DNA of 64,000 nt from Escherichia coli (GCF_046105845.1 NZ_CP151004.1); one strand, 5' to 3'. Positions 1 to 17,398 are shown, counted from the first letter of the stretch. Numbers and translations: made by a program. Notes: generated by a model from the letters alone, not told the origin.

Positions 1-398
1 TTTATTCCAGCAGATTTAATAGTTTCAACAAAAAAAGAAGAGTTCGTCACTAAATCAATCAAATTCCCTTTGAATGATTTAGTGAATGTGTAAATTAAAG
101 AGTATGTTTTTTGTATCTCAATAGCATCTCTAAAGAGGGGGTGGTGTACAATGCCACTATCGTAAATGACCCCTTCATTTCCGATAGTATCTTTATTTAC
201 ATTAAATATATTAGATAAATATTCCTTTATTGCATGAAGCTCATCATCCGAGCAAATAAATATTGAGTGCGCAGCGTATATCCCTCGATCTTTCAGTGAA
301 ATAAATATTGGATAAGACCCATCAACTAAATTGAGTGGGAATTTATCTTTTGAAAAAAAATCTTTAACTTCAGGTTTTTTTATGAGCAAATTCTTCAT
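1..398 (-). CDS. hypothetical protein, candidate T6SS immunity protein (N-terminal 132 codons; ORF continues past window start)
   Basis: Manual translation of the minus strand from ATG at 396-398 is open to position 1 (MKNLLIKKPEVKDFFSKDKFPLNLVDGSYPIFISLKDRGIYAAHSIF...). It starts 14 bp after the stop of the upstream candidate effector. Very AT-rich. Not in the supplied ORF track because no stop lies inside the window. Function inferred from position only. Confidence 0.4.
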   Translation of the reverse strand, partial: MKNLLIKKPEVKDFFSKDKFPLNLVDGSYPIFISLKDRGIYAAHSIFICSDDELHAIKEYLSNIFNVNKDTIGNEGVIYDSGIVHHPLFRDAIEIQKTYSLIYTFTKSFKGNLIDLVTNSSFFVETIKSAGI

Positions 399-411
399 GT
401 GCTCTATCCAA

Positions 412-1302
412 TTAGTTTTCATCTATATAATCCGCTACCCAATCTGCACCAAAATAACCAGCTGCACCAAAAACAATTCCGCCAATAATCCCGGTAGCCA
501 CTGCTCCTGGCCCAGTAGTAACACCCAGGGACGCGCCTATCACTGTTCCAATTTTAGCACCAGCTACTGCTCCTCCCCATCCTCCAATTTGCCTTATTGC
601 TTCTGCACCTATAGGTTTTATGCTTTTTGTTTCAAACGATTTTTCAGTTGCCTGTTCTAAATCATATGCAGTGAAAAAAATACTAAAAACTTGTACGACA
701 CGCCCGGCCTTAACAATGTTTTGAGTCGTTTTTAGAGACTCTGGTGTAAAAATTGTTTGTGCTGGTACTTTTCTACCTTCGATCAAGACCTCTTTATCAA
801 TATCATCAACATAGCCTGAAATTTTTTCAACACGCTTAGCCAAATGAGGGTATTGTTTCTTATACTCCTCAAGAGCAGTAATAATCTCTGCGGTCGAGAT
901 TAACTTCAATCCGGCATTTTTTGCTTTGTGAACATCAATAAATATGGTTTTCCCCTCAAATCTCGGAGAGCCATCAGGAAATATAGAGCTTGTAGAAATC
1001 AACGAGGATTTGTTGTTCCCCATAACATGTTCTGCTACAGTAGTGGGTGCTGAATAATCTTTTGGCATCAACCCATAGCGTTCAGGCTCTGTTTCTGATA
1101 ATAATCTAAGAGGATCCAGATTCATCTTTGTCAGGTAGGGACTATTTGGTGAAGCATATATTTTTCTGACAAGAAAGCCATCTTTTCCCGGTTCATCGAT
1201 AACTATAAAAAAGAAACCTCTTGCAGGCATTAAGGGTCCTAATATATCGTGATTTGAATCAGGTATATCATTTGTTCCTACTGTATTCTCAGATATCACC
1301 AT
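412..1302 (-). CDS. candidate VgrG-associated T6SS effector with C-terminal glycine-zipper-like hydrophobic tail (function unknown)
   Basis: 296-aa ORF whose start overlaps the vgrG stop by 7 bp (translational coupling). AT-rich. C-terminal about 55 aa is glycine-rich and hydrophobic with repeated GxxxG spacing (GGWGGAVAGAKIGTVIGASLGVTTGPGAVATGIIGGIVFGAAGYFG). I do not recognise the N-terminal 240 aa. Confidence 0.5.
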   Translation of the reverse strand: MVISENTVGTNDIPDSNHDILGPLMPARGFFFIVIDEPGKDGFLVRKIYASPNSPYLTKMNLDPLRLLSETEPERYGLMPKDYSAPTTVAEHVMGNNKSSLISTSSIFPDGSPRFEGKTIFIDVHKAKNAGLKLISTAEIITALEEYKKQYPHLAKRVEKISGYVDDIDKEVLIEGRKVPAQTIFTPESLKTTQNIVKAGRVVQVFSIFFTAYDLEQATEKSFETKSIKPIGAEAIRQIGGWGGAVAGAKIGTVIGASLGVTTGPGAVATGIIGGIVFGAAGYFGADWVADYIDEN

Positions 1303-3785
1303 TTTTCCAGCGCCTTAATACCAAGAAGTACGTTTAGGTTATCAGCTTCTTCCGTGAAAATTCTTTCACAGCACCCGGCAGAATCAGTAAACCCCTTATA
1401 GATATTCCCTATGCTGTCTTCTATATAGTAAGGTACATTAGCAATGAATTTTCCGTCATCATCAATTACTCTAACTTGCTCATCAAATTTCGCAGATATT
1501 ACAGGAAACGCCATCAGCTCCGGCGTCAGCTTCGCCTTTGGTTTACGCCCGTAATATCCGGCCTTAACGTTATATTCTCCCTGCGTTCCTGCTTCTATCC
1601 CGCAGGCATCCAGCCGGATGTAGCTGCCACCGCCGTTAAGGGTGATTTTCTTCTTCGCGGTGATCTTGATCTCATCTTCCGTACTGGTGATCTCTATCGA
1701 TTTCTGCGCCAACAGTTCCATCAGATCGTTCTGTGCCTGTACCGAGATCGCCCCCTTGTTGGCAAACAGCTTGATGCCCGCCTTGCGTACAAACACGCTC
1801 AGCGCCTGGCCCACGCCGATAAACATATTTTTCACCACGCCGACATCGGCGTTGTTGCCTGCGTTGGCTATCACATTCTTTGCCGCCGCCAGTTGCAGGT
1901 GCTCTCCGCTGGCAATCGCCACGCCTTTGGGTGCGCTTAGCAGGATCGCCGCCTGCGTCAGATCTTTTACACTCTGCTGCAACAGCGCTATCTGTGATGA
2001 CAGATCTGCCGGATCGGCATTCGCCGTCTGCGCATCAGTGGACAGCGACTTCATCTGTGACTGTGCGCCATCCAGTATTGCCATTGCCGGAGCCATTTCG
2101 CGCACCTGACCCTGAGCCTTGTCCTGCGCATCGGCGCTGATAAAGATGCCTTTCTTCGCCCGCACTGCGCCCCACATATCGGTACGCAGTTCAAAGCCTT
2201 CGCCGCGCTGCTGTTTCCCGGCATCCACCAGATGACCAAGGTTTAGCTGACTCTTGCCGCCGTACTCGGTACTGACCTTGATATGTTCTTTGCCGCGCTC
2301 GTCATCCAGCCGGATTTTGTTGTTCGCCGGGGTGCGCAGCACGTTGCGCTTGTAGTTCTGGATAGTCACATGGTCAGTGTGTGCCGAGTCGTGTTTTACG
2401 CCTGCAATATAAGGTCGGTCCGGGTTGCCTTCCTCAAACGCGATACTGACCTCCGTTCCCGCCAGCAGCGGCAGGTGCAGGCCGTAGGTGTCTCCCGCAT
2501 ACGGGCGCGACTGGCGTACCCACAGGCTTTCATAACCCGGTTTCCACGTATCGCGGTCAAAGTCCAGGTTGACCCGGTAGCGCCCGTCCTTGTCGATATG
2601 GGCATAGATATCGTTCTTCACCGTGCTGGTGACCCGCGCCGGAAGCGTGCCGGCCATTACCGGGCGGGGGATAAACGCCGGGCGGTAGCCGTAGCGTTCT
2701 GAGTACGGGATAGCGGTAAACGTCAGTTCATAGCTGCGGTCACGCGCCGCGCTGGCCGTCACGCCGGTAATCAGCACGCCCTTGCGAAACACCGCTGGCG
2801 CGTCGTCGCCCTGAACCTTTATCTCCAGCCCCTGTGTCAGCAGTGAACTGGTGCTCTGGCCTTTGAGAATGGCCTGTTCATTCAGGTAGCGTTCGTGGCG
2901 GATACGGGCATAAAACGCGCCGCTTTCCGCTGCCTCCTTGTCGCCTTTTTGCAGGAAGTTGTCAGCGTAGTGGTAGGCTTCGCCATAGGTGGTGTTATCG
3001 CCCCCGGTGGCGTCATGCTGCTCTGTCATCATCTCTGCTGTGGCGGTGCGGTAGTTGTAGTCCCGCGTGGTGACGCTTTTCTCCACCACGCTGTACGCAG
3101 TGTTCAGCCCCCATACCGCTTCCGTGGTGCCGTCGTGTAGCCCTGAAGGATGGCGAAGCGGCAGCGTCAGTCCGCGCTCATAGCCGCTCTGGTCGTCGTA
3201 AAACTCGACAACCTCAATTTTCAGCCGGGCGTCGGTGGCAAAGCGGAACCAGATACCCACTTCCGACAGCAGGCGTGAAATAAACGTCAGGTCGTCCTCA
3301 CCGTACTGCATCACCTGTTCACGGGACGGGTATTCGCTTTTGAGGTTAAACACGAAGTCCTGACCGCGCATCTGGTGCCGCTCGCGCAGGATTTTTTCGA
3401 CGATTTGCGGCACCGTCAGATTCTGGTAGATGGCGTTCTGGCGGCTGCGGGCCAGCAGTGCCATACGGGGTTCAAGACGCACTTCGTAACGGGCTTCATC
3501 CTGTGACGAGGAGAGATGCTTAAAGCCGGTAATGACCCCGTACAGGGTGCGCAGGGGGGCCTGCACCGGCATTCCCTGTACCGGCGGTGCCGTCAGGCTG
3601 AATGCGCCGTCCTGCATCAGCACCGACTCCGGCTCGATGGCTTTATCGCTGCTGGTAAACTGGATATCGTAGCGGAACGGGGTACTCAGTTGTTCGCGGC
3701 CTTCGAAGGTCAGCACATCCACCGGACTTTGCAGGCCGCGAATTTTGAGCTTGTGGTGTGAATGGTCGAAATTCTGAATACCCAT
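1296..3785 (-). CDS. vgrG: T6SS spike protein VgrG (TssI), 829 aa, with C-terminal extension
   Basis: N-terminal region (DVLTFEGREQLSTPFRYDIQF) and overall length are typical of VgrG. Strong SD (GGAGG) upstream. The last ~70 codons are AT-rich, unlike the rest of the gene. Confidence 0.9.
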   Translation of the reverse strand: MGIQNFDHSHHKLKIRGLQSPVDVLTFEGREQLSTPFRYDIQFTSSDKAIEPESVLMQDGAFSLTAPPVQGMPVQAPLRTLYGVITGFKHLSSSQDEARYEVRLEPRMALLARSRQNAIYQNLTVPQIVEKILRERHQMRGQDFVFNLKSEYPSREQVMQYGEDDLTFISRLLSEVGIWFRFATDARLKIEVVEFYDDQSGYERGLTLPLRHPSGLHDGTTEAVWGLNTAYSVVEKSVTTRDYNYRTATAEMMTEQHDATGGDNTTYGEAYHYADNFLQKGDKEAAESGAFYARIRHERYLNEQAILKGQSTSSLLTQGLEIKVQGDDAPAVFRKGVLITGVTASAARDRSYELTFTAIPYSERYGYRPAFIPRPVMAGTLPARVTSTVKNDIYAHIDKDGRYRVNLDFDRDTWKPGYESLWVRQSRPYAGDTYGLHLPLLAGTEVSIAFEEGNPDRPYIAGVKHDSAHTDHVTIQNYKRNVLRTPANNKIRLDDERGKEHIKVSTEYGGKSQLNLGHLVDAGKQQRGEGFELRTDMWGAVRAKKGIFISADAQDKAQGQVREMAPAMAILDGAQSQMKSLSTDAQTANADPADLSSQIALLQQSVKDLTQAAILLSAPKGVAIASGEHLQLAAAKNVIANAGNNADVGVVKNMFIGVGQALSVFVRKAGIKLFANKGAISVQAQNDLMELLAQKSIEITSTEDEIKITAKKKITLNGGGSYIRLDACGIEAGTQGEYNVKAGYYGRKPKAKLTPELMAFPVISAKFDEQVRVIDDDGKFIANVPYYIEDSIGNIYKGFTDSAGCCERIFTEEADNLNVLLGIKALEKW

Positions 3786-3796
3786 GACAGCCTCCG

Positions 3797-17137: not shown

Positions 17138-17220
17138 GATTTACTCCTCAGTTATCGTCAATGTTAAGCGACGAGGCTGACGTAATATCCTGTTCCACCA
17201 CCACTTTTTCAGCCATAAAC

Positions 17221-17280
17221 TCAGAAATGGCCTACGAAATTTGTCCTCTGGTCGCATAGGCCATTTCATGGGCCATTTTG
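17221..17280. repeat. cluster of short repeats AAATGGCCYA (one direct, two inverted) between integrase and aspV
   Basis: AAATGGCCTA at 17224-17233; TAGGCCATTT at 17256-17265; GGGCCATTTT at 17268-17277. Adjacent palindromes GGATACAGGAGTATCC (17285-17300) and AATTTGTCCT/AGGACAAATT (17236-17245 / 17304-17313). Confidence 0.45.
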
Positions 17281-17319
17281 CACCGGATACAGGAGTATCC
17301 AGCAGGACAAATTCAGACG

Positions 17320-17357
17320 AAAAAAAACCGTATCACCTTGATAGCGATACGGTTTTC
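17320..17357 (-). terminator. rho-independent terminator downstream of aspV
   Basis: On the minus strand: CCGTATC-loop-GATACGG hairpin followed by a run of eight T. Confidence 0.65.
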
Positions 17358-17398
17358 TTACTTCACAGGATGTATAAAAACACCCTGAAATTTGTAAG

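Follow-up and report, generated by a model that had tools for sequence, protein, structure and literature searches.

A T6SS-1-type secretion cluster beside aspV in Escherichia coli, cut by the window edge and very probably complete

Results

Type VI secretion genes beside aspV

The first 17,398 positions of a 64,000-nucleotide stretch of Escherichia coli DNA (GCF_046105845.1, NZ_CP151004.1; the whole stretch is referred to as the window) carry part of a type VI secretion system (T6SS) gene cluster, which adjoins the tRNA-Asp gene aspV. Genes were identified by listing open reading frames (ORFs) and scanning them with NCBIfam and Pfam profiles at curated cut-offs. Coordinates follow the numbering of the 64-kb window, and negative values lie to the left of position 1 and were read from the public draft genome GCA_044249515.1. 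The cluster occupies positions 1–13045 with the following features (lengths in amino acids, aa).

12518–13045, minus strand: tssB, small subunit of the sheath, at the head of the operon (TIGR03358, 3e-48)
10921–12465, minus strand: tssC, large sheath subunit, 512–514 aa depending on the start codon (TIGR03355, 2e-199)
9566–10903, minus strand: tssK, baseplate subunit, 445 aa (TIGR03353, 9e-118)
8904–9569, minus strand: tssL, short form, membrane-complex subunit, 221 aa (NF038239, 1e-85)
7182–8891, minus strand: tagL, 569 aa, three predicted transmembrane (TM) segments and a C-terminal OmpA-type peptidoglycan-binding domain (PF00691, 1e-17; hydropathy)
6633–7124, minus strand: hcp (tssD), tube protein, 163 aa (TIGR03344, 6e-51)
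3797–6442, minus strand: clpV (tssH), AAA+ ATPase recycling the sheath, 881 aa (TIGR03345, 1108.8 bits against a cut-off of 885)
1296–3785, minus strand: vgrG1 (tssI), spike protein, 829 aa (TIGR01646, 2e-136; Phage_GPD, Phage_base_V, T6SS_Vgr, DUF2345)
412–1302, minus strand: VgrG-linked cargo, "glycine zipper family protein", 296 aa, its start overlapping the vgrG1 stop
3–422, minus strand: gene of 205 aa, the first 140 codons in view, overlapping the 296-aa gene by 11 nt and running off the left end
13046–13609, no strand: AT-rich intergenic region upstream of tssB, G+C ∼0.32, presumed to hold promoter or regulatory sites (composition)

All eight of the named T6SS genes are uninterrupted on the minus strand, reading leftwards from 13045, with NCBIfam and Pfam scores well over the curated cut-offs. 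The tssB ORF encodes 175 aa and is annotated in relatives as 166 aa, with the start at 13018. The core components present and intact in the window are thus TssB, TssC, TssD (Hcp), TssH (ClpV), TssI (VgrG), TssK, and TssL. When proteins from GCA_044249515.1 were used as tblastn queries, no match to TssM, TssA, PAAR, TssF, TssG, TssJ, TssE, or the VasL-domain protein was found in the 64-kb window. Both halves of the original prediction, which had listed the sheath genes, TssK/TssL, TagL, Hcp, ClpV, and VgrG as in view and TssA, TssE, TssF, TssG, TssJ, and TssM as out of view, are borne out by these results. The tss genes have a G+C of 0.55–0.62, as compared to 0.32–0.39 for cargo and spacer and ∼0.49 for the flanking core. 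A scan for sigma-70 consensus and terminator sequences upstream of tssB was uninformative.

The cluster belongs to the T6SS-1 lineage

T6SS-1 is defined by gene content and order (PMC10711316) and is the same lineage as T6SSi2 (PMC12282107). The present cluster is classed as E. coli T6SS-1 (T6SSi2, Sci-1-like), an already well-known type, because its gene order is that of the lineage, a TagL protein accompanies a short-form TssL, no FHA gene, second hcp, or second tssA is found, and its proteins match solved structures. The order tssB-tssC-tssK-tssL-tagL-hcp-clpV-vgrG in the window is followed, after cargo, by tssM-tssA-PAAR-tssF-tssG-tssJ-tssE in GCA_044249515.1. TagL is a separate anchor encoded beside a TssL that has no OmpA domain of its own. 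Residues 1–445 of TssK align with residues 1–445 of the TssK in 5M30 (E 1e-163), residues 10–809 of VgrG align with 6SJL (E 2e-187), with residues 1–478 almost identical to 2P5Z, and the peptidoglycan-binding domain of TagL matches 5M38, 7RJJ, and 7BBA. The Sci-1-like type proposed in the original prediction is therefore upheld on gene order, the TagL/short TssL pair, and structural matches.

The location at aspV would point elsewhere, since the T6SS described at this site in strains 042, LF82, UTI89, 536, and APEC O1 is of the FHA-containing, two-hcp type (PMC2808357, PMC2941450), and the cluster might accordingly be taken for that usual aspV-linked system (T6SS-2/T6SSi1). Against this, the cluster has the T6SS-1 gene order, encodes TagL, lacks an FHA gene, is 95% identical in DNA sequence to the T6SS at metV in strain 536, and matches Sci-1 structures end to end. 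On gene content this assignment is rejected, and we regard its likelihood as practically negligible.

The cluster is complete in the nearest public genome

An exact look-up of the ClpV protein, which is identical on 13 public contigs, led to contig DBAMWG010000005.1 of GCA_044249515.1. This contig agrees with window positions 1–16442 at 16,441 of 16,442 bases, the sole mismatch being at 2833. The window's own genome is not one of the 5,426 complete RefSeq E. coli genomes, where the best match covers 81% at 97.5% identity. The same kind of look-up with the exact VgrG sequence of the window found no record. A second draft, GCA_018015415.1, differs by three mismatches over 13,277 bases and carries the same intact genes on separate contigs. 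To the left of position 1, GCA_044249515.1 contains the following features.

To -195: rest of the 205-aa gene
-2741 to -243: vgrG2
Between vgrG2 and tssM: a 265-aa HExxH protein, a 286-aa signal-peptide protein, and proteins of 103 aa and 404 aa
-9537 to -6205: tssM
-11140 to -9530: tssA
-12576 to -11146: PAAR protein, 476 aa, with a HExxH C-terminal domain
-14809 to -13049: tssF
-15852 to -14773: tssG
-16369 to -15833: tssJ
-16801 to -16373: tssE
-18177 to -16801: VasL-domain gene (ImpA_N + VasL)
-18613 to -18242: MucR-like gene, 123 aa, a ROS/MucR-family zinc-finger regulator and the last gene of the island
From -18894: yafV, then ivy, fadE, and gmhA

An ORF-by-ORF check found no internal stop in any ORF of this continuation, and TssA, TssE, TssF, TssG, TssJ, and TssM are intact. 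Within the set formed by tssM, tssA, PAAR, tssF, tssG, tssJ, tssE, and the VasL-domain gene, full-length matches over the NCBIfam cut-offs were obtained for six of eight. The island of GCA_044249515.1 encodes all 13 core components together with TagL, PAAR, and the VasL-domain protein. The original prediction had placed the remaining core genes beyond position 1, after the effector region, and had proposed that a leftward extension of 15–20 kb would reach tssM, tssA, tssF, tssG, tssJ, tssE, and a PAAR gene; every one of these was found in GCA_044249515.1, in the anticipated place. As judged from sequence, window positions 1–17398 are very probably the aspV-proximal half of a ∼36-kb island with a complete E. 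coli T6SS-1 (T6SSi2, Sci-1-like), and the question of complete system or remnant is answered as complete in the nearest public genome.

Several observations weigh against this interpretation. The left half was read from a near-identical public draft genome rather than from the window's own DNA. TssM, 1110 aa in GCA_044249515.1 and similar in size to its homologue in strain 536, scores 260 bits against the TIGR03348 curated cut-off of 388; the 536 homologue, annotated just as "ImcF-related," is presumably likewise under the cut-off. TagL contains a 19-aa in-frame duplication, described below, and expression and firing of the cluster are predictions. Finally, decay is seen in relatives: tssM is frameshifted in E. 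coli O158:H23 CFIAFB20140388 (CP076709), tssG is frameshifted in MEW (CM192120), and the whole cluster is deleted beside the insertion sequence (IS) ISEc31 in SC418 (NZ_LR778147.1).

Such decay raises the alternative that, in the strain itself, an event immediately beyond the left edge of the window, such as an IS-mediated deletion or a core-gene frameshift, has cut short or disabled the island, so that only the eight genes in view look functional. An island ending shortly after the immunity gene, the outcome that the original prediction had named as contrary to it, is not seen in GCA_044249515.1 but is seen in SC418, where only the integrase is left and the locus is reduced to aspV-int-HTH-ISEc31-yafV (HTH, helix-turn-helix gene); the tssF of the 536 metV copy is frameshifted, in addition to the tssM of CP076709 and the tssG of MEW. 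However, the complete set is intact in a genome with one mismatch in 16,442 bases, as well as in GCA_018015415.1, and in the window itself 9 of 9 complete cluster ORFs are intact, with the tenth (the 205-aa gene) open over its first 140 codons. A remnant is thus quite unlikely, and the small likelihood left to it is owed to the decay documented in SC418, CP076709, and MEW.

ISEc31 marks two complementary deletions at the locus, one in SC418, where the T6SS is gone, and one in CP076709 and MEW, where the T6SS is kept. In SC418, it adjoins a truncated HTH gene and yafV (10468–13779 of the extracted stretch), and in CP076709 and MEW, it lies at around 26810–28315 and 34207–35712 of the extracted stretches.

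Predicted assembly and a duplication in tagL

One leftward operon, with tssB at its head, encodes the TssB/C sheath, TssK, TssL with TagL, Hcp, ClpV, and VgrG with cargo; as read from GCA_044249515.1, this operon continues through a second VgrG with cargo, TssM, TssA, the PAAR toxin, TssF, TssG, TssJ, TssE, the VasL-domain protein, and the MucR-like regulator. By analogy with Sci-1, TssJ, TssL, and TssM would form the envelope complex, anchored to peptidoglycan by TagL, while TssK, TssF, TssG, TssE, and VgrG would make up the baseplate. TssA would prime polymerization of the Hcp tube and the TssBC sheath, contraction of which would drive an Hcp-VgrG-PAAR needle with at least three effector modules into neighboring bacteria, and ClpV would then recycle the sheath.

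An in-frame tandem duplication of 57 bp, with copies 95% identical, is present in tagL at 8257–8370. The 19 extra aa (WLLWSGLSGSPLPEKAHSP) fall in the predicted cytoplasmic loop that separates TM2 from TM3 and give a TagL of 569 aa as compared to 550 aa in most carriers; the duplication is common only to GCA_044249515.1 and GCA_018015415.1. A copied TM segment, with a consequent flip in topology, was considered and dropped, as translation in the correct frame puts the repeat in the cytoplasmic loop.

A complete gene set might nonetheless encode a silent or crippled machine, if the TagL duplication, or silencing at the AT-rich promoter, blocks assembly. The restriction of the duplication to this lineage and the G+C of 0.32 upstream of tssB are consistent with such a defect, as is the published remark that numerous E. 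coli T6SS clusters stay silent in the laboratory (PMC2808357). Conversely, the duplication preserves the frame and affects neither the TM segments nor the peptidoglycan-binding domain, and purifying selection is evident in all the other genes, which are intact and 95–100% identical to relatives. We consider a silent machine doubtful, though with more weight than a remnant, and retain the reading of a complete T6SS-1.

Cargo modules and exchange at the vgrG1 3′ end

Three cargo modules are encoded: vgrG1 with the 296-aa/205-aa pair, vgrG2 with a HExxH protein, and the PAAR-HExxH toxin, the latter two read from GCA_044249515.1. The vgrG2 module, at about -2754 to -4499, consists of the 265-aa HExxH protein (weak M35 match) followed by the 286-aa secreted protein, a candidate immunity protein.

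With 41 genomes of the 536 type, the window shares 99.3–99.5% identity over positions 1–1500, as compared to only ∼95% over positions 1500–13042, and the last ∼68 codons of vgrG1 (nt 1296–∼1500) are part of the exchangeable cargo module. In the aspV relatives CP076709 and MEW, homology is lost at 1498–1504. This pattern of identity reads as a recombination breakpoint at ∼1498–1504 in the 3′ end of vgrG1, the familiar exchange of a VgrG C terminus with its effector.

The 296-aa protein has a predicted ADP-ribosyltransferase fold

A set of 344 homologues of the 296-aa protein, nearly uniform in length (∼294–298 aa) and 55–70% identical, extends from Enterobacter, Klebsiella, and Salmonella to Pseudomonas, Burkholderia, and Vibrio; no name among them goes further than "glycine zipper family protein." Its residues 1–200 match no Pfam or NCBIfam model, PADLOC gave nothing useful, and no sequence-level match to any ADP-ribosyltransferase (ART) family was obtained. 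An AlphaFold model built with 32 homologues is confident for residues 41–190, and the best Foldseek match of this model is pertussis toxin. R46, S103-x-S105, and D169-x-E171 are invariant and lie on the strands expected for R-S-E motifs, which in toxins of that clade comprise Arg on strand 1, Ser-Thr-Ser on strand 2, and Q/E-x-E at strand 5. The model thus predicts an R-S-E ART fold at about residues 40–200 of the cargo. The C terminus (about residues 225–296) is made up of glycine-zipper helices. A search of the PDB with the family profile returned colicin B and Ib pore domains only, at non-significant E values (0.15 and 0.48); classification as a colicin pore domain was not adopted on that ground, and the matches were taken as a weak hint that the C-terminal part is active at membranes.

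Upstream of homologues of the 296-aa protein there is in every case a gene for a spike protein (VgrG in Enterobacter, PAAR in Pseudomonas), and downstream there is one for a ∼200-aa homologue of the 205-aa ORF product (29% identity, E 1e-23 to 1e-25; Enterobacter, Pseudomonas). The visible 140 codons of that ORF are 100% identical to residues 1–140 of the GCA_044249515.1 protein, and the partner family numbers 188 representatives. The 205-aa protein showed no TM segment, no signal peptide, and no match to a Pfam family, and PADLOC and NCBIfam gave nothing useful; its AF2 model has a pLDDT of 93 and no informative structural neighbor. The 205-aa protein is a candidate for the cognate immunity protein of the 296-aa cargo, or for a chaperone of its hydrophobic tail.

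RefSeq names the pair "glycine zipper family protein" and "hypothetical protein," and none of the papers in the library searched connects a glycine-zipper T6SS cargo with an ART fold. We tentatively propose, at somewhat less than even confidence, that the two form an uncharacterized, widespread T6SS cargo module in which an R-S-E ART would be joined to a glycine-zipper tail for crossing of, or insertion into, the inner membrane, and in which a fast-evolving cytoplasmic partner of new fold would serve as immunity protein or chaperone. The first vgrG cargo appears to represent an unannotated ART-fold toxin family conserved from Enterobacterales to Pseudomonas.

Island boundaries and a decayed integrase module

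Between the T6SS operon and the tRNA gene, the remnant of an integrative element spans 13.6–17.1 kb; together with aspV, its features are as follows.

17399–17475, minus strand: tRNA-Asp (GTC) gene aspV (ARAGORN)
15913–17137, minus strand: P4-type tyrosine integrase pseudogene (Phage_integrase, Phage_int_M; NF007246 profile positions 80–394 only)
15659–15916, minus strand: HTH_35 HTH protein, 85 aa (PF13693)
14907–15719, plus strand: ParB-family protein of the integrative and conjugative element (ICE) type, 264–270 aa (TIGR03764 ICE_PFGI_1_parB, 7e-81)
14700–14885, plus strand: AlpA-family small DNA-binding protein, 61 aa (PF05930 in the GCA_044249515.1 gene calls; RefSeq name in CP076709)
13610–14599, plus strand: orphan ORF of low G+C, 329 aa (313 aa with the ATG at 13658 as start), oriented away from the T6SS operon, no family

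The tRNA gene is identified as aspV by synteny, being followed in order by dnaQ, rnhA, yafS, gloB, mltD, aspU, and rrnH; the ARAGORN call and this downstream order agree with the site named in the original prediction. On its near side the island is bounded by the 3′ end of aspV, its DNA beginning at 17398, and the core flank to the right of the island is 99.2% identical to E. coli genomes. At the far boundary, BLAST against all complete genomes places the resumption of universally conserved sequence 25–50 bp past the yafV stop codon, at ∼-18.85 kb, and the island is therefore ∼36.2 kb long. A second, identical tRNA-Asp gene, aspU, lies at 25621–25697, ∼8 kb to the right of aspV, and the tRNA-Ala and tRNA-Ile genes of rrnH lie at 29191–29385. 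Short-read assemblies break at aspV, probably because of the identical tRNA-Asp copies.

The orphan ORF is called as 313 aa in relatives, and the region corresponding to it is annotated as a 161-aa hypothetical protein in both aspV relatives; its sole record is a 1.6-kb contig, and it matched no Pfam, NCBIfam, or PADLOC family.

Three-frame translation of the integrase and alignment with the 408-aa gene of SC418, which is intact, showed that 2 bp are missing after 16920, a deletion that splits the window's gene into a 74-aa Arm-DNA-binding piece (16913–17137) and a 340-aa catalytic piece (15913–16935). The recurrence of the 74 + 340 aa split in five independent Logan read-set assemblies rules out a sequencing error. 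SC418 and GCA_052981255.1 both have the intact gene of 408 aa.

The attachment repeat expected at the far boundary (attR) was searched for with exact k-mers of 12–30 nt, blastn-short, and fuzzy matching with 3–6 mismatches, which returned chance matches only. Apart from aspV and aspU themselves, the last 16–25 nt of tRNA-Asp, with up to 3–6 mismatches, were not found in the window, the 42-kb reconstruction, or six relatives; attR is also absent from relatives with an intact integrase. A direct-repeat search of positions 1–17600 yielded no island-bounding repeat, just the tagL duplication. The second att repeat, or partial copy of the tRNA-Asp 3′ end, that the original prediction had placed at the far boundary is thus present neither there nor anywhere else in the reconstruction or the relatives.

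These results bear on whether the int-HTH-ParB-AlpA module could still mobilize the whole island at tRNA-Asp as an active integrative element. The island adjoins the 3′ end of aspV, with a P4-type integrase, AlpA, and an ICE-type ParB nearby, the same T6SS-1 module is found at another tRNA gene (metV) in 536, and some carriers have an intact integrase. Yet the integrase of the window is frameshifted by 2 bp, and no tRNA 3′-end repeat was recovered at the far boundary, within the 42 kb, or in relatives with an intact integrase, making present mobility very improbable. Because the integrase is frameshifted and no attR survives, the island is probably no longer mobile, i.e., fixed.

Discussion

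Comparison with known systems

The finding is an ordinary T6SS-1 cut by the window edge, of a kind that is already known. Its main interest is correspondingly limited: the question of complete system or remnant is answered from public data, and the cargo pair is the only part that would perhaps repay experiments.

A T6SS-1 within ∼10 kb of aspV was found in 2 of 5,426 complete genomes, and a literature search for aspV together with T6SS-1 returned nothing. T6SS-1 at this site is rare, not unprecedented, and not new biology. The two relatives, CP076709 and MEW, share with the window the aspV site, the orientation, and the yafV far end and are 98.7–99% identical to it from tagL through the AlpA and ParB genes. 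They differ in that ISEc31 has supplanted the integrase and HTH genes along with a portion of parB, with the T6SS kept, and in having other vgrG cargo, a colicin-E3-type PAAR toxin, and one frameshifted core gene each.

The T6SS of the metZWV island in uropathogenic E. coli (UPEC) 536, CFT073, and LF82 (pathogenicity island [PAI] III) is ∼95% identical in nucleotide sequence over window positions 1–13042; the vgrG1 3′ end with the 296-aa/205-aa cargo pair reaches 99.3%. In 536, the metV cluster has the same continuation of vgrG2, cargo, tssM, tssA, PAAR, tssF, tssG, tssJ, tssE, and VasL. The module common to the metV and aspV versions runs from tssB through the MucR-like gene. That gene also ends the metV version of T6SS-1, for which reason the MucR-like protein may regulate the cluster. 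In contrast, the 536 cluster lies beside three tRNA-Met genes, has no integrase, and carries a frameshifted tssF, whereas the present one lies at aspV with the int/HTH/ParB/AlpA module. The sequence upstream of tssB in 536 is unrelated to that of the window at the megablast level; region 13046–13609 is common only to the two other aspV-located T6SS-1 genomes and is lacking from the metV version, and it is, with the int/ParB/AlpA module, specific to the aspV version.

The common aspV system (T6SS-2/T6SSi1; EC042_0210–0226, LF82 PAI I) occupies the same hot spot between aspV and yafV but belongs to another lineage, with an FHA protein, two hcp, two tssA, and rhs effectors, none of which is present here. 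The occurrence of T6SS-1 at a hot spot normally held by this unrelated system, behind a decayed integrase/ParB/AlpA module, hints at movement between tRNA sites.

Among effectors, the 296-aa cargo would by its predicted fold be compared with R-S-E clade ART T6SS toxins such as TreX of Xenorhabdus bovienii (PDB 8S2M; PMC11606950). Unlike TreX, it is a free-standing VgrG/PAAR-linked protein rather than an Rhs C-terminal domain, and relative to TreX-type R-S-E toxins, it would add a C-terminal glycine-zipper membrane domain and has D-x-E in place of Q/E-x-E. The modeled fold of its 205-aa partner is unrelated to known immunity proteins.

The closest reference is Sci-1 of enteroaggregative E. coli (EAEC) 042 (EC042_4524–4555, pheU island; the reference T6SS-1/T6SSi2), whose first eight genes, TagL and the short TssL among them, are the same and identically ordered, and which likewise places the other core genes after the vgrG-cargo region; TssK, VgrG, and the TagL peptidoglycan-binding domain of the present cluster match solved Sci-1-type structures over their full length. 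The two differ in site, pheU for Sci-1 and aspV here, and in the 19-aa duplication of TagL. They differ also in cargo, the Tle1/Tli1 phospholipase pair of EAEC 042 being absent here, where a glycine-zipper protein of predicted ART fold, a vgrG2-linked HExxH protein, and a PAAR-HExxH toxin are encoded instead.

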